DNA from: an uncultured Candidatus Poseidoniales archaeon | Lineage (GTDB): Archaea > Thermoplasmatota > Poseidoniia > Poseidoniales > Thalassarchaeaceae | Length of the DNA: 58,664 bases | Assembly (NCBI GenBank): GCA_902573085.1 | Contig: CACGHY010000004.1 | Coordinates: 1-58,664, forward strand | Direction: 5' to 3' | Shown here: one piece after another, positions 33,914 through 41,393 of the stretch | How the letters are laid out: the number at the start of each line of letters is the position of its first letter | How positions within the stretch are numbered: position 1 is the stretch's first letter | Position numbers and translations under genes: made by a program | Notes under the pieces: model-generated | Database searches by the model: none | Told to the model about the DNA's origin: nothing | The model's input: the letters and a program-made list of their open reading frames with translations, nothing else

Positions 33914-34181
33914 ATCCAATTTCCCTTTCCGAGGAAATTAGTGCACTTTTCCGAGAGGTTCCTCCCGGACCACTGTATCCTCCATAGCTACCATCGGAAC
34001 GAATTACTCTATGGCATGGTACTATGATTGGATTTGGGTTGGCAGCGCAAGCATTGGCAACAGCTCTTGATGATCCAGGATTTCCGATAGAAATTGCTAT
34101 TTCTTTGTATGTCCGGGTTTGACCTGCGGGGATTTTTTTGATTTCCTTCCATACTCTGTTCTGGAATGGTGTCCCTGCCAT
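33900..34181 (-). CDS. ogt: Methylated-DNA--protein-cysteine methyltransferase (single domain)
   Basis: TPFQNRVW, IPAGQTRTY, RAVANAC..NP, active-site PCHRV. Confidence 0.9.
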   Translation of the reverse strand: MAGTPFQNRVWKEIKKIPAGQTRTYKEIAISIGNPGSSRAVANACAANPNPIIVPCHRVIRSDGSYGGYSGPGGTSRKSALISSEREIGSKNT

Positions 34182-34481
34182 TTATTCTTCTTCCCCCGAC
34201 CACGTCCCTTCATCTATTTCCTCCATCCCAACTATCTCGTAGTTTGATGGGAAGAGTGCAATGGCCACTCCAATTACTATGCAAGAGATTCCGAACCAGA
34301 ATGACCCTCTTATCATCAACTCCATTCCAATTGCGAATAGAAAGAGGCCGCCGAGATTAGAAACCCAAACAAGGGTCTTGAAAGTAGACAATGAAACCCC
34401 ACTCGCCCTCTTTGTTCTATGTGGGCCGAATTCTGCCCCGAATCTCAATGGATCATCCTTGCCCATTATATCACCGGTCAA
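34182..34481 (-). CDS. Small two-TM membrane protein
   Basis: Two hydrophobic helices; tightly packed between the ferredoxin and ogt genes. Confidence 0.6.
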   Translation of the reverse strand: MTGDIMGKDDPLRFGAEFGPHRTKRASGVSLSTFKTLVWVSNLGGLFLFAIGMELMIRGSFWFGISCIVIGVAIALFPSNYEIVGMEEIDEGTWSGEEE

Positions 34482-34803
34482 TCATAATTATCGCATCGGT
34501 GGGGCAAGCTAATACACAAATCTTGCAACCTGTGCACGGGTCCCTCAGAATTTTCGCTTTTTTATTTACATCCACATCCATAACAGGACTGAGCAGTGGT
34601 GTATCGTACAACTCTATGGCATCGTCCTCACATACTATCGTGCACTGATCGCATCCAATACACAATTCTTCTTTTACCCAAGCAACTGTATCTTCTCCGC
34701 CTTTCAGAAGGGCTTCTTCTTCTGCCCTAACCGAGTTTAATTGCTTCCTGATTCTTGACTGTTCAACAGCCCTTCTCTTGAGCACCTCCTCGGTTTTGGT
34801 CAT
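34471..34803 (-). CDS. 2x[4Fe-4S] ferredoxin-like protein with N-terminal coiled helix
   Basis: CIGCDQCTIVC and CTGCKICVLACP. Confidence 0.9.
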   Translation of the reverse strand: MTKTEEVLKRRAVEQSRIRKQLNSVRAEEEALLKGGEDTVAWVKEELCIGCDQCTIVCEDDAIELYDTPLLSPVMDVDVNKKAKILRDPCTGCKICVLACPTDAIIMIDR

Positions 34804-34875
34804 GTTACTCGGCCTTTGCATCCAGTCCACCCTTATCATAGTGAGTTTGATTCGCGCGCCTTAAGTCACGGTTAC

Positions 34876-35151
34876 ATGAAACCTAGCTACCCACAGACGT
34901 GGTGGCGCGACCCAATGGTTTGGCTAGGCCTTCTTCACGGCGCTGCAATATGGGCCTTTATGGCATCCTTACTCAGCATTTCATCCGCTTGGATTTCCCT
35001 TGCTTGTGGCTTCTTCATAGGGTTCTTCCTGTACTTGGTAGCCTTGGGATATCAGGACTATCGCTTTGCGAGGGCTATACTTGTAGGCCTCGCGATCAAT
35101 CTCTTCCTTTCTTCGCTCTCTGCTATCATCGCTCTTATGGACCAGTCCTAG
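34876..35151 (+). CDS. Small three-TM membrane protein
   Basis: Hydrophobic 91-aa ORF from MKPSYPQ; converges on the b6f-like operon. Confidence 0.55.
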   Translation: MKPSYPQTWWRDPMVWLGLLHGAAIWAFMASLLSISSAWISLACGFFIGFFLYLVALGYQDYRFARAILVGLAINLFLSSLSAIIALMDQS

Positions 35152-37961
35152 TTTTTGGATTCCTCTATCTGCCTGGCCAGGAAGCTCACAACATCAAGAA
35201 TCTCAAAGTCGTGTCTTGGGTCACCCTCGAATTTCAGACACTCGAAGTGTGCAACGCACTTTGGGCATGAGGTGAGCATTATGTCCGCTCCAGTTTCCCT
35301 GACTTCATCGAATCTCTGAACCCTCAGTGCCCTGCTATTCTCGTTGCAGGACATCATGCTTGAGACTCCACAGCATAAGGCATCTTCACCGGTATGCTCC
35401 ATCTCTACCAGATTTACCCCTTCTACAGAGCCTACCAGATCTCGTGGCTCATCGTAGATGTTCATCTGTCTACCCAACCTGCACGGGTCATGGTATGTCA
35501 CAGTGACTTCGTCGTTTGACTTCAGATTCATGTCGAATCCATTCTCAACTAGGAACTCTGTGGTGTGCATCACTTTCATGTCATCCAACTCATAGTCCAG
35601 AGCGAACGTCCTGAAACACTCAGCGCAAGAAGTGACCAATGTTTCAATCCCACTCTCTCCGAGCTTCTTTTGGTTGTATGCCTTTAATTTCTCGAATACC
35701 TCACTCATCCCTTGCCACTTCTGGTCGTGCCCACAGCACTTCAAGAAATCTCGACCCAGGTAGGTGACATCCTCTCCCATTTCCTCGAAAATCGTGAAAG
35801 CTGAAGTCGTAGCATCTCCAAGATCCATCGTTCCTTTGTTCACATGGCTGAAAACCATCTCCTGGTCGATATAATCAACACATCCAGGATAGTATCCTAT
35901 GCTTGAGTCCAACGGGTAATCTTCCACAGGGATGAAAGAATCGTCTGCATCTTCTTCCGCCTCAGCGGCTAATACTGCTTGCAACACCGTGTGCGGTATC
36001 TCCGTGGCAGGAGGCCCACCTACCACAAGGTTCCTTCTTATATCGATGTAAGAGTCGTAATCAACTAATTGTGGACATGCGTTTGTACATGCCGTGCAGG
36101 TCAGGCAGGAGTAAAGTGGAACCCCGTCATCTTCGTTGTTCCACGTATTGTAGATTATGTTGAGTTTATCCCCCGCATTGAACAATCTCACAGGGCAGGC
36201 GTCATCGCACAAATCGCATCCATAGCACTTGTTCATCTCCCACTCGTAGCCACGAGCCATGCTTCTGAGGAACATGAATACCATCGCGCCTACACCGAGG
36301 CACGGTATGAACATCGAGTAAATCAGTTTGGCATCAAGGCTCAGCGGGTTCTTTTGGAAAGTCGGATTTGTCAATGTTAACGAAGCAAGCTCCTCATCGC
36401 TGAGGCTGACTTCAGATCTAACTAGTGCCGTTCCATCTTCTTTGAGAAGTAGAGGCTGGTAGGAAATTGCTGAGAAGTCTGAGATCATTGTGACCGTGTC
36501 ATTGACTTGCTCTGAGATAGTGGTGAAGGAAATCGTGTAAGATCTCCCAGATTCAAGGTAGATTGTGTCAGACTCGCAAGTAGAACCGGAATTCGACCAA
36601 ATTTCTCGGCCCAAATCATCGGTAAGAGTTAGACTCTGAGTGTGGTAACCTGCATTTCGGACGGTTGTCCTGAAGTTGCAACCTATGTCTGTCTGAACTT
36701 CCGAAATTCCGAGGTCTTCAACCTCGAACTGGATGGATTCCGAAATCGAGATAGGGCTGCCGTCTTCCTCTCCTTGGTAGATGATTTCATTGGCCCCTAT
36801 ATTTCTGGATGTTTGCGTATCGGCGTGCCCATTAACCCCGCTGAAGTCTATTATCTGACTACGAGTAGGTTGGAAGATCCCCCAGTTGACAAAATGCTTC
36901 GCGGGTAATACACACCATTCAGAATGCGTCGTACCCTCTTCCATAGTTTCCCAGACAGACAAGGAATCTGTCTCCTCGTATGATAGGCATTCTTCCTCCC
37001 AGTCGTCCCACACAGGTCCCTTTTCAACGTGTATTAAAGAGTCTGCAGGCTGACCTCTTATCCTATCCAACTCGTCGAGCTTGGCATCGTATTGGTACTC
37101 CCAGAATCCCATTGTCCCCAGTCCCCTTTGATTCCAGAAACCATTCTCGTAGACCGGCCAAGTGACCGTGCAGAGTAGAACAGTTGCGATCAAAGATCCG
37201 ACGGCCACCTGTCTACCGAGAATTGGAGTCAACCGAGAACCCATCGGACCGATCAAGAATTTCCTAACCGAGAAATAAAGCACAACGAAGACGAAGACGC
37301 CAGTAAGGATCCATGGAACCGCATTGAAAACTTCGGCAGTCCATGGTGGCTGAGTACCGCAGTTGAATGTTCCATGAGGGCCAATCCAGCAGTAGTCCGT
37401 TCGATTCTGACCATACATTTCCAGGAAGATGTTTATCGAGAATACAGAAATAAACCACACATGCGCTAAGTATACGGCTCCCGCTGTAGCGAACCACGGA
37501 TCCTCGACACCCCTCTTCTCCCTTTTTCCGATAATGAATGGTGGAAGTGCGAGAATGGCCACAGGAACCCCAGTGATCATCGCACCCCACACCCCCGCAT
37601 TCCAAGAAACGATAGGCTGTCCGAAGAACTCACCTATCGGACCAGCAGGGATGTCGAACTGCGGCAAATACTCGCCCCACCTAAGGTATCCGTAAGAGAA
37701 CAGAACGTACCAATCAGGGAAGACGAAACCAGCCTGAGCGTAGGGATCTGCAGCGTTGTGTAAGGGCGGGGGGATGATCCAAGAATAGAATGCTATGACC
37801 ATTACTATCGAGGCGAAAATAATCGTATCTCTGAGAACTTCAGTAGGCCAGAAACCATGACCTGTGTGCACTCTTCTCCTTTCTTCCTCAGCACCAAGCA
37901 ATTGCTCTTTCTCGCTGACATAAGTGTCGGCAATCCTTCCAAATCTTTCAATCAGACCCAT
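35148..37961 (-). CDS. Cytochrome b6f subunit IV-like protein fused to an extracellular domain and a 2x[4Fe-4S]/2xCCG (HdrD/GlpC-like) module
   Basis: FWP..VLRD, PPLHNAADP, PDWY (PEWY motif); CYGCDLCDDACP, CLTCTACTNACP; YYPGC...CCG...TSCAEC and YHDPCRLGR...CCG...TSCPKC. Confidence 0.9.
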   Translation of the reverse strand: MGLIERFGRIADTYVSEKEQLLGAEEERRRVHTGHGFWPTEVLRDTIIFASIVMVIAFYSWIIPPPLHNAADPYAQAGFVFPDWYVLFSYGYLRWGEYLPQFDIPAGPIGEFFGQPIVSWNAGVWGAMITGVPVAILALPPFIIGKREKRGVEDPWFATAGAVYLAHVWFISVFSINIFLEMYGQNRTDYCWIGPHGTFNCGTQPPWTAEVFNAVPWILTGVFVFVVLYFSVRKFLIGPMGSRLTPILGRQVAVGSLIATVLLCTVTWPVYENGFWNQRGLGTMGFWEYQYDAKLDELDRIRGQPADSLIHVEKGPVWDDWEEECLSYEETDSLSVWETMEEGTTHSEWCVLPAKHFVNWGIFQPTRSQIIDFSGVNGHADTQTSRNIGANEIIYQGEEDGSPISISESIQFEVEDLGISEVQTDIGCNFRTTVRNAGYHTQSLTLTDDLGREIWSNSGSTCESDTIYLESGRSYTISFTTISEQVNDTVTMISDFSAISYQPLLLKEDGTALVRSEVSLSDEELASLTLTNPTFQKNPLSLDAKLIYSMFIPCLGVGAMVFMFLRSMARGYEWEMNKCYGCDLCDDACPVRLFNAGDKLNIIYNTWNNEDDGVPLYSCLTCTACTNACPQLVDYDSYIDIRRNLVVGGPPATEIPHTVLQAVLAAEAEEDADDSFIPVEDYPLDSSIGYYPGCVDYIDQEMVFSHVNKGTMDLGDATTSAFTIFEEMGEDVTYLGRDFLKCCGHDQKWQGMSEVFEKLKAYNQKKLGESGIETLVTSCAECFRTFALDYELDDMKVMHTTEFLVENGFDMNLKSNDEVTVTYHDPCRLGRQMNIYDEPRDLVGSVEGVNLVEMEHTGEDALCCGVSSMMSCNENSRALRVQRFDEVRETGADIMLTSCPKCVAHFECLKFEGDPRHDFEILDVVSFLARQIEESKN

Positions 37962-37970
37962 TCAATCACC

Positions 37971-38843
37971 TCAGTGCGGCTCCGCAATCCCTTGAACCCA
38001 GACGATGAATAGGTGGGTCAGAATAAGAACTGTAACAATTAGCGGTAGTACGAAAACGTGTAGGAAGTACATCCTGACAACTGTCTGGCCCGTCAGTGTC
38101 GTCCCACCAAACATAGCATTAGCCACCCATTCCCCAATCAGCGGAGTAGCCATTGCCATGTTGATTCCTATGGTGGCAGCTCCGAAGGCCAGGCTGTCCC
38201 AAGGCAACAAATAACCTGAGTAACCGAAGAATATCGAGAAAAACATTAGAGCTACTCCGATCAACCAATTGAGCTCTCTAGGGTTTCTATATGCCCCAGT
38301 GAAATAGACTCTGCACATGTGCAGAAATACCGCGGCCACGAAAAAGTGCGTGGTCCAATGGTGGACAGATCTGATGATGTATCCGAAGGGAAGCTCTAGC
38401 ATGATAAACTCCATTGATGCGTAGGCTGGGGTTGGATCTGAGTCCAAATCCCCTCCTGGTACGTAGTAAAATCCTAGAATGGTGCCGCTAATGACCAAGA
38501 TTATGAATGCCAAGAATGAAATTCCGCCCAAGCAATACAGGGGGTACCAATACCAGATTATTCTCAGTTTATACTTCTCAGCGTGGGTCAATGGCATCTG
38601 GCGATGCATGCTGTAATAGGAGTCTTTGGACATGCCCCAGTAGTCCTGAATCCTGAATCTAGTATCTAGCCAAGAGAAAGCCCACAGGAACAACTTCTCG
38701 GCAAGACCCATGCTACCAGCATTTGTTTCCACGGCCCTTAGAATGTCCTTTCTCGGCATGTCATCCCTCTCTCTTCTGAGCGTGAAGGCTACAATTACGA
38801 CCACGAAGGCTATGAAGATCCACAGGAACCAGAATTGAATCAT
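37971..38843 (-). CDS. petB: Cytochrome b6-like subunit (N-terminal half of cytochrome b)
   Basis: YCLGG, AYAS, RSVHHW...FLHMCRVYFTGAYRNPRELNW, GYLLPWD, FLHVFVLP...THLF, QGIAEPH. Confidence 0.93.
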   Translation of the reverse strand: MIQFWFLWIFIAFVVVIVAFTLRRERDDMPRKDILRAVETNAGSMGLAEKLFLWAFSWLDTRFRIQDYWGMSKDSYYSMHRQMPLTHAEKYKLRIIWYWYPLYCLGGISFLAFIILVISGTILGFYYVPGGDLDSDPTPAYASMEFIMLELPFGYIIRSVHHWTTHFFVAAVFLHMCRVYFTGAYRNPRELNWLIGVALMFFSIFFGYSGYLLPWDSLAFGAATIGINMAMATPLIGEWVANAMFGGTTLTGQTVVRMYFLHVFVLPLIVTVLILTHLFIVWVQGIAEPH

Positions 38844-38852
38844 TTTTATCAC

Positions 38853-39701
38853 CTAACCGCAGAACGTGTACCAATCCATAAAATCCGGAAGCGCCTCTAT
38901 CAATCCATCATTCACTTTGAATGGGATCAGCGGCATTCCATACGGAGCCGGACCACCGGTCTTCTTTACACCTATGAAGTCGAATTCTTGTCCATTTGAC
39001 CTGTTTCTTGCTGTATTTTTCTCTATTACGGTGTGGTCATACCTGCTGGAGTGACAGATGCAGAATGATTTGTTTCCGCTAGTGTCGGTCCCACCAGGTA
39101 ACCAGGTATCCGCTGTGTAGTCGTTACTAACGAGTTGCCACCCTGGAATGCAACACAAGTGAGGGCATCTGGCGAAAGCAATAATCAAGTTGTCATGGAT
39201 GTTCAATGATGCGTATTCTTCTTTTTCTTCGATTTCAAAGCCGGATCCTACGTATGCGCCACCAGCGGTGTATCCATCCATCAACTGGAACCTTGGGGTG
39301 CCTGCTTCTAATGGCTTGTTTTTGTTTTCCTCATGCGGGACGTATGTGGCTATGATGGGTAAGCCGGACCAAAGCCCCGCAGCTCCGACCATTCCGGTGG
39401 TCGTGTTCGCGGACTCGTCTACGAAAGATTGCAATGTCATGGGCTGTTTGTCCATGCTGCTGTACCACACATCAGAACCCTTGGGGACATAGAATTTTAC
39501 CGCAGAGTCAGACGCCCCTCCCTCTGCTTGACCCATTAAGAAGGAAGCGAATCCCACAGAGCCTAGTGCAGCTGTAGTAATCAGTCCTGCCGATGTATTG
39601 AAAGATAGCCTCATGAACTCCCTTCTGTCTATTCCGCCGCTCCTCTCGTGAATAGCATCACTCTGGGAGGAGATAGGACGTAGCTTAAATTTCCTTGCCA
39701 T
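38853..39701 (-). CDS. petC: Rieske [2Fe-2S] protein with Tat anchor
   Basis: DRREFM twin-arginine motif plus TM helix; CPHLCC and CICHSSRYD boxes; GGPAP. Confidence 0.9.
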   Translation of the reverse strand: MARKFKLRPISSQSDAIHERSGGIDRREFMRLSFNTSAGLITTAALGSVGFASFLMGQAEGGASDSAVKFYVPKGSDVWYSSMDKQPMTLQSFVDESANTTTGMVGAAGLWSGLPIIATYVPHEENKNKPLEAGTPRFQLMDGYTAGGAYVGSGFEIEEKEEYASLNIHDNLIIAFARCPHLCCIPGWQLVSNDYTADTWLPGGTDTSGNKSFCICHSSRYDHTVIEKNTARNRSNGQEFDFIGVKKTGGPAPYGMPLIPFKVNDGLIEALPDFMDWYTFCG

Positions 39702-39703
39702 TT

Positions 39704-40153
39704 TCAGACCTCGTACTTTTTCCAAGAATTAGTGTCATGATTAGTTATGTATTTGTTTCTCCTATGCTTGACAATCACCACATCAGGCAGGACGTATTTT
39801 AGGTACACAATCCCCAAGATTATCAGTGTAAGTAGCGTCATTGCCAAATTAAATGCAAGCAATTGTTGATCCCACTCCTGATACAATCCATATGCTAATG
39901 CGCCAGCCCAATAGAGGGTCCATAGAATGCCCCAAAGACCCACTATTATGATCAGCCAAGAATCCCCAGAAGGCGCCAGACTTGCTCTTACAATAGTCCC
40001 GGGCTTGACTTCATTGAATACTCCGTGATTCACGGCAGCTTCGAAGGACTCCTCTGTTAATGAAGCATCTTCGAGTGCCACTCTTGCGTCTTCGACACTG
40101 ACCTTTCCGGCCTTTACCTCTCGTAGCAGCCTCATAACTACATCGTCTTTCAT
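39704..40153 (-). CDS. Two-TM membrane protein within the Rieske/cytochrome b operon
   Basis: LLREVKAGKVSVEDA N-terminal helical hairpin, two TM helices; ATGA overlap with the upstream gene and 2-bp gap to the Rieske gene. Confidence 0.7.
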   Translation of the reverse strand: MKDDVVMRLLREVKAGKVSVEDARVALEDASLTEESFEAAVNHGVFNEVKPGTIVRASLAPSGDSWLIIIVGLWGILWTLYWAGALAYGLYQEWDQQLLAFNLAMTLLTLIILGIVYLKYVLPDVVIVKHRRNKYITNHDTNSWKKYEV

Positions 40154-40953
40154 AGTTGATCACCTCTTCTCAGATGTTTAATCCTAAGTTTTAGTAAGTT
40201 GCTTCTTCCTTTGTAGTTCCTGGAGAAACCGTATCTAAGGAATAGGCCGCAGAAGAAGATCACCAGTATAACTGCCCCAAAGCCAAGGATTCCCAACCAG
40301 TGGGCTTTGAGCTTAGCTCCCATTTTGTGGATGTCTTTCTTTCCTTCAATCGGTGCTGGTGGATTTATGTCACCGTTTCCTGAAAAAACGGTTTTTGTTC
40401 TTCCGCTATCTTCACCCTCGTCAATGCTGGTCGTTAGACGATTCCAACGGTCTAGACTAGATGGGGCTAAATCTCCGTTTACCGAGTTGCCTGCAACATT
40501 GAAAACCACTGATCCCGAGCCTTCGGACGGACTGGTCCAGACAAACATCCACGACCTATCGGGGGTTCTCGAGCCTGCATCGGTGTGTGTTAAGCTGGAT
40601 GCATCTCCCTCCCAATTCTCAACCATTGACTCGAATCCTTCCGAGGCGCTGAGCGACCCTTGGGTAACAGTCATTGCAAATCCGGCCGTGTGCGAATCGA
40701 GATTCGCGTCCGGACCGCCGATTAATTGCAACTTCATTTCGTAGGAAGTATCTGGGGCATAGTGGAACGGTACCCCATCGATGATGACGGTAACAGAATT
40801 GTCAGGCTCCTCGGCATGACAAGTGCATCCGGCGATTGAAACTTCTCCCTGTCCGTTTGCGTTTCCGCCAACTCCACTGTGCAGAGCTTCACTAGACCCC
40901 GCCACGAATAACGATAGGATTATCAGAGTGAATATCTTACGTTGTGTAGCCAT
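40150..40953 (-). CDS. Exported Reeler-like beta-sandwich protein with CxCH motif and C-terminal membrane anchor
   Basis: Signal peptide ending SSEA, GCTCH, VPFHYAPDTSYEM, GFAM, LTH, W.F.WTSP..GSGSV.F..AGNSVNGD, C-terminal TM helix. Confidence 0.8.
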   Translation of the reverse strand: MATQRKIFTLIILSLFVAGSSEALHSGVGGNANGQGEVSIAGCTCHAEEPDNSVTVIIDGVPFHYAPDTSYEMKLQLIGGPDANLDSHTAGFAMTVTQGSLSASEGFESMVENWEGDASSLTHTDAGSRTPDRSWMFVWTSPSEGSGSVVFNVAGNSVNGDLAPSSLDRWNRLTTSIDEGEDSGRTKTVFSGNGDINPPAPIEGKKDIHKMGAKLKAHWLGILGFGAVILVIFFCGLFLRYGFSRNYKGRSNLLKLRIKHLRRGDQL

Positions 40954-41087
40954 TTTTGCCCCCCCAGCCATTTGTTAATATTCACCAGAAAAAAGGGGGA
41001 TATGAACCTTACACTACAGCCCCTTCGGAGCTGCGTAGTAATATCGTTTTTCAAAAAATTCAAAGGCATCGCTCGACATTAGAGAAT

Positions 41088-41393
41088 ATGGCATCCCCAA
41101 TGTGGAAGAACACATACTCGCTGAACCCAGGACAGATCGATAAACTCGAGGAGGCAGAGAATAAGATGGAATCTATGGAAATAAGCCAAGCAGAGGAAAT
41201 TCTCCTTTCGATGATTAAGTCCGATCCGGATTGTATTCCAGCCTTGAATGTACTCGGTCACCTCAATGGAAGGCACCTCTCAGATTTCGAAATTGCTATT
41301 GAGTACTATGACAAGGTACTACTGCTCGAACCCGATAATGCTTGGGCTAGAGATGAAAGAAGGAGATACCGAAGATACTTGGATTACGATTAG
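41088..41393 (+). CDS. Tetratricopeptide repeat protein
   Basis: DPDCIPALNVLGHL...AIEYYDKVLLLEPDNAWA TPR consensus. Confidence 0.85.
   Translation: MASPMWKNTYSLNPGQIDKLEEAENKMESMEISQAEEILLSMIKSDPDCIPALNVLGHLNGRHLSDFEIAIEYYDKVLLLEPDNAWARDERRRYRRYLDYD

Follow-up and report, generated by a model that had tools for sequence, protein, structure and literature searches.

Why should the subunit IV of a cytochrome b6f-type complex end in an iron-sulfur module that resembles heterodisulfide reductase, and which way would electrons pass between the two? The question is raised by P0001, a gene in a 58,664-nucleotide stretch of DNA (the window) from an uncultured Candidatus Poseidoniales archaeon. Going by the names on the homologues, the order of this organism is Marine Group II (MGII). 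These archaea are very abundant in the ocean.

Domain architecture and topology of P0001

The first-pass annotation had described P0001 as a triple fusion in a single 937-aa ORF: a subunit IV with a PDWY Qo motif, six TM helices with basic inner loops, an acidic outer domain with paired cysteines, and a cytoplasmic part with two CxxCxxCxxxCP motifs and two complete CCG domains. This anatomy is solid and agrees with the description in every element, including the exact coordinates of the ORF, which lies on the minus strand (Table 1). A gap of 9 nt separates the ATG of P0001 from the stop codon of cytochrome b6.

Table 1. Features of P0001 and of the neighboring genes, with positions in the window
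Feature	Positions	Strand	Basis
P0001, whole fusion (937 aa): subunit IV-like part, extracellular β-sandwich (predicted), TM6, HdrD/EtfD-like Fe-S module	35148..37961	-	
Subunit IV/cytochrome b C-half homologue, residues 1-183; helices E, F, G; PDWY at 82-85	37413..37961	-	Homologue profile, PDWY conservation
Predicted outer loop with Cys191/Cys201 β-hairpin, TM4 and TM5 with K/R-rich inner loop, residues 184-270	37152..37412	-	
Acidic domain, predicted extracellular, residues 291-545; small variable subdomain and β-sandwich (~388-500)	36327..37091	-	Hydropathy, AF2
TM6, residues 546-564, predicted to return the chain to the cytoplasm	36270..36326	-	
Two CxxCxxCxxxCP motifs (2 putative cubane [4Fe-4S], HdrC-like), residues 575-631	36069..36239	-	Pfam Fer4_9/8/10
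First CCG domain, putative distal cluster site, residues 694-782; C694, C742-C743, C779, C782	35616..35882	-	
Second CCG domain, putative proximal non-cubane cluster site, residues 821-906; C827, C863-C864, C899, C902	35244..35501	-	
Cytochrome b6-type cytochrome b, 293 aa	37971..38852	-	Pfam PF00033, E = 4.8e-41
Rieske-type iron-sulfur protein, 290 aa as listed	38853..39725	-	Sequence, conserved operon position
DUF7318-like small membrane protein	39704..40153	-	Conserved in operon across phylum
273-aa secreted, C-terminally anchored protein ('Reelin domain' cluster), first operon gene	40150..40971	-	
99-aa small membrane protein	34182..34481	-	Conserved gene position
110-aa ferredoxin-like protein, 2x[4Fe-4S], N-terminal helix	34471..34803	-	Co-occurrence, predicted docking

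A profile of the N-terminal part from 10 homologues matches the cytochrome b C-half of bc1 (E = 3.3e-14) and PetD, the subunit IV of b6f (2e74_B; E = 1.8e-8). The single sequence of P0001 gives E = 0.15 against Pfam PF00032 (12.7 bits, cut-off 20.7), and a homologue in locus L026 passes this model (E = 1.5e-9). Judged from these profiles, the homology of the N-terminal part to the C-half of cytochrome b holds. The PDWY motif, which aligns to PEWY of bc1, is kept in all 29 aligned homologues that cover its positions. As in a subunit IV, P0001 has the three helices E-F-G and an N-terminus predicted to lie on the n-side, and its gene adjoins those of b6 and the Rieske protein.

The six TM segments found by Kyte-Doolittle hydropathy (residues 46-64, 126-144, 162-180, 214-232, 252-270, and 546-564) coincide with the helices of the AF2 model, which, as a model of the whole protein, is of low quality in the membrane (pLDDT 65, pTM 0.44). 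The N-terminus carries 7 K/R residues and the loops that follow carry 1, 4, 1, and 4; the two inner loops contain GKREKRG (145-151) and RKF..R..R (233-251), while residues 271-545 have 47 D/E against 15 K/R. Since the N-terminus is on the n-side, PDWY is on the p-side by homology, and the chain has six TM segments, the Fe-S/CCG module is predicted to lie inside. The reverse arrangement, which had been named as the test of the annotation, is at odds with both the helix count and the homology anchors. Prediction and homology together thus show the topology and support a cytoplasmic position for the Fe-S/CCG module.

Other lineages have short fused forms with 4 TM, which lack residues 184-270 with TM4 and TM5; their fourth TM, which is helix H-like, is the counterpart of TM6 of P0001 in the alignment. 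The acidic domain that precedes TM6 is modeled with a pLDDT of 85.2, and its structural matches are weak and of a generic β-sandwich only. Four cysteines are found in it (325, 350, 428, and 462), mostly kept as pairs: Cys428/Cys462 in 26/26 and 27/28 alignment rows, and Cys325/Cys350 in 20/20 and 20/25, the segment that holds the latter two being missing in L038, L039, and L043, from another family of the order. Cys191 and Cys201 form a further conserved pair in the outer TM3-TM4 loop. The acidic domain (27-85% identity) evolves much faster than the rest of the protein, the C-terminal module having 75-98%.

In the C-terminal module, the CxxCxxCxxxCP motifs lie at residues 579-590 and 619-630, and their 8 cysteines are invariant in all rows that cover them (28-31 rows). 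Pfam PF02754 (CCG) matches two stretches with 80.6 bits (cut-off 20.6). Both domains show the pattern C...CCG...CxxC, and for every one of the 10 CCG cysteines conservation is 26 of 28 rows or higher. The cluster types that we infer are two cubane clusters and two CCG-bound, probably non-cubane clusters.

Distribution of the fusion and its operon

P0001 is matched over its whole length in 200 of the 201 genomes of the order, covering 24/24 genera, and the fusion recurs in other Thermoplasmatota. It is therefore no chimera of assembly, the risk that the first-pass annotation had raised, and it extends beyond the source organism; conservation from end to end in so many genomes places the ORF far beyond chance. 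Among 49 further Thermoplasmatota loci, the link between subunit IV and HdrD is fused in 9 and split into adjacent genes in 8, and one more locus is cut by the contig end. The fused forms outside the order are without the outer domain. In at least five families, whether fused or split, the link involves subunit IV and no membrane protein besides it.

All 18 loci with the link (9 fused, 8 split, 1 cut) have a b6 of the x-L-G-G type, in which the first position is Cys in 15 and Ser in 3, and a T/S-x-G-S b6 occurs in none of these 18 loci versus 17 of the 27 readable loci that lack the module. In three MGIII loci the module is retained together with a b6 in which Ser replaces the heme-cn Cys, and 10 loci have CLGG in b6 but no module; the tie of the module to heme cn is thus loose, and it is confounded by kinship.

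The genes form a compact operon in the order p273-DUF7318-Rieske-b6-P0001-(Fd)-p99. In b6, the four heme-ligand His residues are conserved, and YCLGG aligns with the YCLGG heme-cn Cys site of the b6 of 7r0w/6rqf. The motif suggests that the neighboring b6 carries heme cn, putatively with covalent attachment; the role of the CxGG-motif Cys, which precedes helix A, and the residue numbering in b6 are background, taken in part from PMC5600118. Relatives of the Rieske protein start at its residue 9; the protein has an RREF twin-arginine-like motif and CPHLCC and CICH boxes, and matches TIGR01416 with E = 2.9e-8, under the cut-off of that model. The 273-aa protein is a possible p-side partner. Its 'Reelin domain' name is automatic and a lead only. 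The 99-aa gene follows the ferredoxin gene wherever the latter sits downstream.

The ferredoxin-like partner and the proposed electron path

The gene of the ferredoxin-like protein (Fd) lies downstream of P0001 in 9/9 loci of the same genus and in 5/7 other loci. In this strain the two genes are ~345 nt apart, with an opposite-strand ORF in the gap, and in one genus of the order the Fd gene is ~14 kb away in three of the four genomes checked. Full-length Fd orthologues (E ≤ 2e-38) occur in 73 of 301 genomes (64 Poseidoniales, 8 MGIII, and G251), all 73 of which also have the subunit IV-HdrD link; in the remaining genomes the Fd matches (E ≥ 1e-15) cover the Fer4 core only. The modeled complex of the P0001 module with Fd has an ipSAE of 0.84, versus 0.07 for the best of three controls, and is a prediction from our own alignments that may partly mirror likeness to solved HdrBC/LutAB-type assemblies. 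The same ipSAE mark was attained by 58 of the 80 solved complexes and by 2 of the 110 mismatched pairs. Docking runs agree on at least 86% of contacts, with a partner pLDDT of at least 81, and place the predicted interface at residues 652-738 and 872-912, i.e., on the distal CCG domain. Fd thus co-occurs with the link and is predicted to dock on that domain. For comparison, the EMO preprint describes the ETF flavin as positioned for transfer to the non-cubane clusters.

The nearest solved relative of the C-terminal module is EtfD of Mycobacterium smegmatis (PDB 9OJN), both by phmmer (E = 1.1e-21 to 9ojn_A) and by Foldseek (rank 1, E = 3.4e-13). The four clusters of EtfD are reported to form a wire that starts at ETF and leads to heme b in the membrane and to menaquinone (PMC13083937), and in all solved or modeled relatives with a membrane cytochrome (EtfD, EMO, and HdrDE) the last cubane cluster is described as feeding a heme. 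The first-pass annotation had proposed a direct wire from a cytoplasmic substrate to the quinone-reduction site. The idea of a wire fits the nearest solved relative, which is one; the substrate is probably the ferredoxin-like subunit, which that annotation had overlooked, and not a small molecule or a disulfide.

We put at about one in two the probability that P0001 is an n-side Fe-S wire that brings low-potential electrons of cytoplasmic ferredoxin to heme bn/cn and the Qi site. The helix E-F-G core with PDWY, b6, and the Rieske protein would jointly form the site of quinol oxidation, and two extra helices and the fast-evolving acidic β-sandwich would decorate the outer face. The sixth helix would lead the chain to the cytoplasm and the HdrD/EtfD-type module, where Fd, with its two [4Fe-4S] clusters, would dock on the distal CCG domain and complete with the two cubane and two CCG clusters a six-cluster wire on the n-side. 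Ferredoxin would be reduced by 2-oxoacid:ferredoxin oxidoreductases, and the electrons would pass to heme bn/cn, from which the proximal cubane cluster would have to lie within ~14 Å, and on to quinone at Qi. Such a complex would be a ferredoxin:quinone reductase and a quinol oxidase in one, in which quinol formed at Qi is re-oxidised at Qo with release of protons outside. We assign the donor, the contact of clusters and hemes, and the direction in which electrons flow by argument, the last of these from thermodynamics and lifestyle. The more specific proposal of a hard-wired MGII ferredoxin:quinone reductase, in which each Qo turnover would be matched by one low-potential electron passed from bound Fd through the four clusters to heme cn/bn, is tentative.

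POR-type 2-oxoacid:Fd oxidoreductase is present in 5/5 genomes, and NuoF was found in 0/5. CoM and CoB are not known from these organisms, a premise carried over from the first-pass annotation. The members of MGII have been described as lipid and peptide degraders (PMC6336850, PMC9723583).

A different role for the module would be catalysis of the HdrD type, in which the CCG clusters reduce disulfides or oxidise thiols, whether of low molecular weight or of the DsrC/TusA/lipoate type, and exchange electrons with quinone via the b6 hemes, as in HdrDE, DsrMK, and TfrB. Public annotations do name the protein heterodisulfide reductase subunit D, its best NCBIfam match is TfrB (thiol:fumarate reductase subunit B), and CX..CCG..CxxC is complete in both CCG domains; EtfD replaces one of these cysteines, and its authors associate clusters that are fully coordinated and shielded with a non-catalytic role (PMC13083937). 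However, none of the NCBIfam equivalogs reaches its cut-off with P0001 (TfrB, 108.8 bits over residues 616-930 against 385; DsrK, 33.4 against 400), and the predicted position of Fd covers residues beside the ligands of both CCG domains, which better suits a relay than an open active site. In the sister lineages, the gene downstream codes for a polyferredoxin, for an MvhD+Fer4 protein with a weak FAD-domain match, which may be HdrA-like, or for a Fer4 protein with a weak Thi4 match below the Pfam cut-off. Because the partners in all lineages are Fe-S proteins and not thiol carriers, they fit the interface of a redox carrier rather than a thiol substrate, and we regard catalysis as unlikely. 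A donor other than ferredoxin is suggested by the kinship to EtfD, by EtfAB genes in 5/5 genomes, and by the lipid- and peptide-degrading lifestyle: P0001 would then be an EtfD/EMO-type ETF:quinone oxidoreductase within complex III, fed by ETF from β-oxidation and amino-acid breakdown. Against this stands a two-CCG protein of 663-681 aa that two Poseidoniales genomes and one MGIII genome, all from this class, also encode. The Poseidoniales copy matches EtfD (9ojn) with E = 1e-105 and is only 29% identical to the P0001 module; its first CCG domain reads C-S, an EtfD-like replacement of CC. The gene of the MGIII orthologue is directly upstream of etfB-etfA. P0001 is never beside etf genes in the loci examined, and its docking face is predicted to be taken by the dedicated Fd subunit. 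As a separate true EtfD orthologue makes ETF an unlikely donor to P0001, this assignment is very improbable.

The sequence fixes no direction for a wire, which is symmetric, and low-potential electrons could instead leave heme bn/cn through it and Fd toward ferredoxin, NAD(P)+, or a flavoprotein. Precedents for such an output are the anammox Rieske/cytochrome b complexes, proposed as a hypothesis to make NAD(P)H (PMC12954380), and the bacterial cytochrome b fusions to 4Fe-4S+MvhD or to ferredoxin/flavin reductase (Kao and Hunte 2014); the MvhD+Fer4 and Fer4/Thi4 proteins of the sister lineages point the same way. On thermodynamic grounds, however, moving electrons from the p-side to the n-side opposes the membrane potential, and with a donor at the level of menaquinol, reduction of a ferredoxin-level acceptor would consume the greater part of the energy that the high-potential branch yields. 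For an aerobic organism that lives on peptides and lipids and already obtains reduced ferredoxin through POR, there is no evident need of this output, which we hold to be rather improbable. Still less probable is that subunit IV serves as a mere membrane anchor, the Fe-S module meeting quinone directly, or something else, without the b6 hemes. CCG proteins can act without a heme-bearing membrane domain, as in archaeal SDH according to the EMO preprint, and the anchoring would be of the kind presumed for CCG proteins in heme-less type E succinate dehydrogenase or GlpC; the MGIII loci that retain the module without the heme-cn Cys would also agree with it. The exclusive attachment to subunit IV across families and the passage from the last cubane cluster to a heme in EtfD, EMO, and HdrDE both speak for contact with the hemes.

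If the hard-wired ferredoxin:quinone reductase exists, quinone reduction at the Qi site would be driven from both sides. It would be the route that has long been proposed for ferredoxin-dependent cyclic electron flow through cytochrome b6f and is not known to have been isolated, and it would be ancestral to a whole branch of the Thermoplasmatota Rieske/b6 complexes.

Comparison with known systems

P0001 shares with PetD and the cytochrome b C-half of bc1 the helices E-G, P[DE]WY in the ef loop, and an n-side N-terminus, and with b6f subunit IV a gene position directly after a four-helix b6 with CxGG and after Rieske. It exceeds b6f subunit IV by three TM helices, an outer domain of 255 aa, and a cytoplasmic Fe-S module of 370 aa. 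Cytochrome f/c1 is absent here, and the operon has instead the 'Reelin domain' protein and small membrane proteins.

With the membrane-bound ETF:(methyl)menaquinone oxidoreductases EtfD and Syntrophus EMO, the module has in common the two cubane motifs and two CCG domains at the cytoplasmic face of a membrane cytochrome; the membrane partner, however, is subunit IV and b6 of a Rieske complex rather than a NarI-like five-helix cytochrome, and a bound ferredoxin-like subunit takes the place of ETF as predicted donor. The first CCG domain of P0001 retains CC where EtfD has CT, and Glu781 occupies the place of His583 in EtfD; P0001 has neither the NarI-like heme b domain nor the altered distal cluster ligands, and no link to etfAB. 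Methanosarcina HdrDE, like DsrMK and TfrB, shows the HdrC-like and HdrB-like domains in one chain with the ten-Cys CCG pattern, and HdrDE also shares the attachment of the module to a b-type cytochrome. P0001 differs in its aerobic heterotrophic host and in the protein partner predicted over the CCG cleft. It has neither equivalog-level similarity to HdrD proper nor an HdrE/NarI-type partner, its membrane partner being subunit IV/b6.

Part of this system is already known. For Angelarchaeales, Diamond et al. (2022; PMC9038741) proposed in one sentence, on the basis of hdrD-like and rnfB-like genes close by, that ferredoxin enters at complex III. These genes and the orphan RnfB of MGII (Tully 2019) are probably the same system at the annotation level; the available text of the two accounts does not mention the subunit IV fusion, the outer domain, the phylum-wide spread, the tie to CxGG b6, or Fd docking. 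Cytochrome b is joined to cytoplasmic Fe-S/flavin modules also in the anammox Rieske/cytochrome b complexes with NAD(P)-linked subunits, and the bacterial 'PDWF-FeS' fusions likewise combine a Qo-motif cytochrome b with 4Fe-4S/MvhD or ferredoxin/flavin reductase parts. As described by Kao and Hunte (2014), those fusions involve a full-length cytochrome b, lack CCG domains, and come from gene clusters without Rieske, whereas in P0001 the fused part is a split subunit IV, from a Rieske/b6 operon that is complete.

Architecture of the fusion protein and its operon

P0001 is encoded as a single 937-aa ORF, as the first-pass annotation had proposed, and its features were also recovered. The PDWY Qo motif occupies residues 82 to 85, and hydropathy gives six transmembrane (TM) helices (residues 46 to 64, 126 to 144, 162 to 180, 214 to 232, 252 to 270, and 546 to 564), with K/R counts that alternate along the successive loops (7, 1, 4, 1, and 4). 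The acidic domain at residues 271 to 545 contains 47 D/E against 15 K/R and four Cys, and the Fe-S module combines a pair of CxxCxxCxxxCP motifs with two CCG domains recognised by Pfam (80.6 bits; cut-off, 20.6). Across 40 aligned homologues and fragments, the 8 Cys of the cubane motifs are invariant in all rows covering them, each of the 10 CCG Cys is kept in at least 26 of 28 rows, and the outer Cys pairs 191/201 and 428/462 are nearly invariant.

As a single sequence, the N-terminus is under the Pfam Cytochrom_B_C threshold (E = 0.15). A profile of ten homologues of this part matches the C-terminal half of bc1 cytochrome b (E = 3.3e-14), with PDWY aligned to PEWY, as well as subunit IV of b6f (E = 1.8e-8); by profile, motif, topology, and gene context, P0001 is a subunit IV homologue. 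Because the N-terminus of subunit IV is on the n-side and PDWY is on the p-side, the six helices would place the acidic domain outside the cell and the Fe-S module in the cytoplasm. The orientation suggested earlier is thus supported as a prediction from homology and helix count. The AF2 model of the whole protein has a pLDDT of 65, and its membrane part is too poor to place the Fe-S module relative to the helices.

The surrounding genes are listed in the table. Their source, the 1.16-Mb assembly G000, has a completeness of 62.6%, and the names carried by close homologues (Candidatus Thalassarchaeaceae, Thalassarchaeum, "Euryarchaeota archaeon," and "Thermoplasmatota archaeon") assign the organism to Marine Group II (MGII). 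Over its whole core, the cytochrome b encoded next to P0001 matches cytochrome b6 (E = 6e-41); YCLGG falls on the motif of the heme-cn Cys, and the four His ligands are all aligned. The gene of the 273-aa protein, which has a signal/anchor, a C-terminal TM helix, and a GCTCH motif, is kept at the head of the operon in all 7 of the additional loci from the order and in 7 of the 15 from elsewhere, and its product may be a p-side partner in place of cytochrome f/c1. In the Atlas, its cluster bears the automatic name "putative Reelin domain-containing protein" (score, 0.98). The DUF7318-like gene holds its operon place in most loci across the phylum, and the gene of the 99-aa protein directly follows the ferredoxin-like gene in all 14 loci of the order that have the latter downstream; both membrane proteins are likely extra subunits. 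An Rfam scan of positions 34000 to 41200 gave no match at E ≤ 1. The small hydrophobic ORF on the opposite strand occupies the gap of approximately 345 nt between P0001 and the ferredoxin-like gene. This gap is 354 to 383 nt in some genus-mates (loci L004, L005, and L007), 4 to 6 nt in others (L002 and L003), and approximately 60 nt in a third set (L008 to L010), so the ORF is regarded as a variable insert within the operon.

Coordinates of the operon genes and of related features in other genomes (L-numbers are loci fetched from those genomes)
Feature	Position	Strand	Remark
99-aa membrane protein	34182-34481	-	downstream of ferredoxin-like gene
Ferredoxin-like gene	34471-34803	-	downstream of P0001
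Small hydrophobic ORF	34816-35151	+	111 aa listed; ~91 aa probable from internal Met; ~3 TM
P0001, 937 aa	35148-37961	-	ORF
Cytochrome b (b6-type), 293 aa	37971-38852	-	stop 9 nt ahead of P0001 start
Rieske-type gene	38853-39725	-	cytochrome b gene directly after it
DUF7318-like membrane protein	39704-40153	-	upstream of Rieske gene
273-aa secreted, C-terminally anchored protein	40150-40971	-	first gene of conserved operon
Divergent neighbour, 304 aa	41419-42333	+	tubulin/FtsZ signature GGGTGSG in translation
EtfD orthologue (by sequence) of Poseidoniales, 679 aa	L046:2484-4523	-	two CCG domains
EtfD orthologue of the sister group, 663 aa	L045:1675-3666	+	two CCG domains
Outer decorations of the complex in other Thermoplasmatota	L023:5086-6948, L027:1203-3818, L026:2994-4733
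MvhD (FlpD)+Fer4 protein, 596 aa	L027:5406-7196	+	downstream gene; weak FAD-domain match
Fer4 protein, 419 aa	L024:134-1393	-	downstream gene; weak Thi4 match below Pfam cut-off

The outer/middle part is the least conserved region of P0001, with an identity within the order of 27 to 85%, compared with 61 to 97% for the subunit IV part and 75 to 98% for the Fe-S module. Three loci of another family of the order (L038, L039, and L043) lack its first subdomain in the alignment. When modelled alone (pLDDT, 85.2; pTM, 0.77), the outer domain takes the shape of a small helical and irregular part followed by an eight-stranded β-sandwich. Foldseek returned only weak, generic β-sandwich matches (GOLD, MAM, CBM, and phage tail-fibre tips; TM on query ≤ 0.29), from which no function can therefore be read; a Pfam match to DUF5643 (E = 0.0015) is below the cut-off, and no cofactor motif is visible in the domain. 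Elsewhere in the Thermoplasmatota, one to four N-terminal Big_5 Ig-like domains are found on cytochrome b6 (two loci), and a Laminin_G_3 (ConA-like) domain is found on subunit IV (one locus). Since these outer decorations differ, the outer domain of P0001 is read as a lineage-specific surface decoration.

Distribution of the fusion and of the heme-cn motif

Of the 201 sampled genomes of the order, 200 contain full-length P0001; these include all 24 genera and all 61 high-quality genomes. Among the matches listed, all but two (688 and 724 aa) cover residues 1 to at least 933 in one open frame of 915 to 990 aa. The N/middle, middle/TM6, b6/P0001, and P0001/ferredoxin junctions are bridged by contigs of 90 to 99% identity, drawn from four marine RNA libraries that belong to a single study; these contigs indicate presence in RNA libraries rather than level or a single transcript. 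A chimera or misassembly, which the first-pass annotation would have read from an absence of the fusion in other assemblies, is rejected on the occurrence in the order and on the RNA-library contigs across the domain junctions.

A phylum-wide search with the first 290 residues of P0001 matched 116 of 301 genomes, and the 49 loci outside the order that scored E ≤ 4.4e-11 were all compared. Subunit IV is fused to the same Fer4 and double CCG module in nine of them, as a shorter protein of 552 to 789 aa with four TM helices and without the outer domain; in eight, all from a sister group in the same class that is read as Marine Group III, subunit IV-Fer4 and the two CCG domains are encoded by adjacent genes. 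One locus is cut by a contig end, and the other 31 have no such module within approximately 4 kb. Among the best 150 matches of 1.84 billion cluster representatives, PDWY and the module are combined in only eight clusters, named, where a name is given, "Fe-S oxidoreductase" or "heterodisulfide reductase subunit D". One more cluster, in which subunit IV is joined only to Fer4, is named "4Fe-4S dicluster domain-containing protein."

All 18 module-bearing loci outside the order have the x-L-G-G motif in cytochrome b6, with Cys in 15 and Ser in 3. The loci with Ser (YSLGG; L032, L064, and L066) are all from the sister group and retain the split subunit IV-Fer4 and CCG genes. The motif is readable in 27 of the 31 loci without the module, of which 10 have CLGG and 17 have T/S/A-x-G-S. 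Judged by these motifs, the module is confined to the heme-cn-motif type of b6 among the loci compared, and the motif is also present without the module. As a test of a link between the heme-cn Cys and the HdrD-like module, the association is only partial (15/18 with the module versus 10/27 readable loci without it), and the comparison is not usable in this way because it is confounded by kinship.

The predicted ferredoxin-like partner and the proposed direction of electron flow

The ferredoxin-like protein comprises 110 residues (counted from the second Met of the ORF), with two 4Fe-4S motifs, eight invariant Cys, and a conserved N-terminal helix. Its gene lies downstream of P0001 in 9 of 9 loci of the same genus and in 5 of 7 loci of other genera. 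The two genera without an adjacent copy in the sampled loci (L038 and L039) have a full-length copy elsewhere in 5 of 5 genomes. In three of these, it is on the same contig at a distance of approximately 14 kb; a fourth has it approximately 1.2 kb away, and in the fifth it lies on a different contig. The profile of this protein is bimodal across the phylum. Full-length matches with E ≤ 2e-38 come from 73 of the 301 genomes (each of the 64 from the order and the 8 from the sister group, plus G251), and scores in all others are at least 1e-15 and restricted to the Fer4 core. Subunit IV and the HdrD-like module, fused or split, are present in 73 of 73 genomes with this protein; as these genomes are kin, the agreement represents co-inheritance and not a statistical test.

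A complex predicted from residues 565 to 937 of P0001 and the ferredoxin-like protein gave an ipSAE of 0.84 (median of three runs), compared with 0.07 for the best of three controls; in the calibration of the tool, 58 of 80 solved complexes and 2 of 110 mismatched pairs attained this mark. At least 86% of contacts are common to the runs, and the partner has a pLDDT of 81 or more. In the modelled interface, the partner lies on residues 652 to 738 (the first, distal CCG domain) and 872 to 912 with its N-terminal helix and the loops of both clusters. The docking, a model result from our own alignments to which likeness to solved HdrBC-type assemblies may contribute, supports binding of the ferredoxin-like protein to the module. 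The sister group and G251 have a polyferredoxin gene at the downstream position. This place is taken by an MvhD (FlpD)+Fer4 protein, which is read as HdrA-like, in one lineage with the short fused form and by a 419-aa Fer4 protein in another; the other four genomes of the latter's family have proteins of 425 to 449 aa at the same position, matched via the Fer4 core.

Possible donors were surveyed in five genomes (G000, G019, G027, G003, and G394; four at least 91% complete), which comprise the source genome, two relatives from the order (91 to 92%), one genome at 96%, and one from the sister group. POR-type 2-oxoacid:ferredoxin oxidoreductase and EtfAB were each present in 5 of 5, and NuoF (PF01512) was found in 0 of 5; the NADH dehydrogenase of MGII is called canonical in PMC6336850. 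A separate protein of 663 to 681 aa with two CCG domains occurs in three of the five (two of the order and one of the sister group). The Poseidoniales copy, which matches the solved EtfD of M. smegmatis (9OJN) at E = 1e-105, has C-S in its first CCG domain and shares 29% identity with the P0001 module, is by sequence a true EtfD orthologue, and the sister-group gene is directly upstream of etfB-etfA. It represents an archaeal ETF:quinone route, of which the accessible portions of MGII papers, PMC6336850 among them, contain no mention that we found. With a separate EtfD orthologue, ETF has its own entry, and ETF as the donor of P0001 was ranked low once this dedicated protein was found. The P0001 module most likely serves the ferredoxin-like partner.

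We favour electron input with ferredoxin as the donor, in which electrons would pass from ferredoxin through six clusters to heme bn/cn and then to quinone at Qi. Two reasons favour this direction: reduced ferredoxin is made by this aerobic heterotroph, and it would be costly to drive electrons inward, against the membrane potential, to an acceptor at the ferredoxin level. If the wire instead ran outward as an electron output, the complex would join the anammox complexes as the second candidate for a bifurcating Rieske/cytochrome b enzyme. Entry of ferredoxin electrons at complex III has been suggested, in one sentence, for Ca. Angelarchaeales with hdrD-like and rnfB-like genes nearby (PMC9038741).

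Comparison with known systems

At E ≤ 0.001, the sole solved sequence relative of the module is the EtfD of M. smegmatis (9OJN; E = 1.1e-21), which also ranks first by fold, followed by LutA and HdrB. According to PMC13083937, EtfD carries a row of four clusters, spaced 7 to 9 Å apart, that leads from the distal CCG cluster to the membrane heme b and menaquinone; the distal cluster is a linear [3Fe-4S] owing to Thr in place of the second Cys of the CC pair, and the clusters are held by the authors to be shielded and non-catalytic. P0001, on the other hand, has CC in both CCG domains (742/743 and 863/864), and Glu781 takes the aligned position of His583 in EtfD. These residues make the ligand set HdrB-like, from which the cluster types of the module are inferred. 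In the available part of the Syntrophus EMO preprint, ETF docks for transfer to the non-cubane clusters, and a Rieske/cytochrome b setting is not among the many settings of the module listed there. The homologous domain of EMO is reported in that preprint to assemble its clusters in E. coli.

Among the planktonic archaea of surface ocean waters, MGII are reported to be the most abundant, and none has been cultured (PMC6461757). Published reconstructions credit them only with "a cytochrome b and a Rieske protein but no canonical bc1" as well as an orphan RnfB (PMC6336850). The open-access PMC and bioRxiv literature, supplements excluded, yielded no description of a subunit IV-HdrD fusion. The fusion is real and universal in a globally abundant group, and its sequence features are mechanistically suggestive. 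The present reading would assemble the loose MGII parts into one defined seven-gene machine, give the orphan ferredoxin-like protein a place, and predict that complex III has a further point of electron entry. A Rieske/b6 complex that combines a heme-cn motif with an Fe-S chain joined covalently on the n-side would offer bioenergetics a tractable system in which to study the disputed ferredoxin electron route to the Qi side of b6f-type complexes. It would also be a new setting, in an aerobe, for the HdrB-type non-cubane cluster module.

EtfD, EMO, and HdrDE, in which an HdrCB-type wire is mounted on a membrane cytochrome, are the closest to P0001 in function; however, P0001 lacks the NarI-type domain, the ETF link, and an equivalog-level score of this group. 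No NCBIfam equivalog model reached its cut-off for P0001, the best being TfrB (108.8 versus 385). For anammox Rieske/cytochrome b complexes, NAD(P)-linked modules have been proposed. The bacterial "PDWF-FeS" clade (Kao and Hunte, 2014) likewise contains cytochromes b fused to cytoplasmic Fe-S or flavin modules, whereas its gene cluster is without a Rieske gene.
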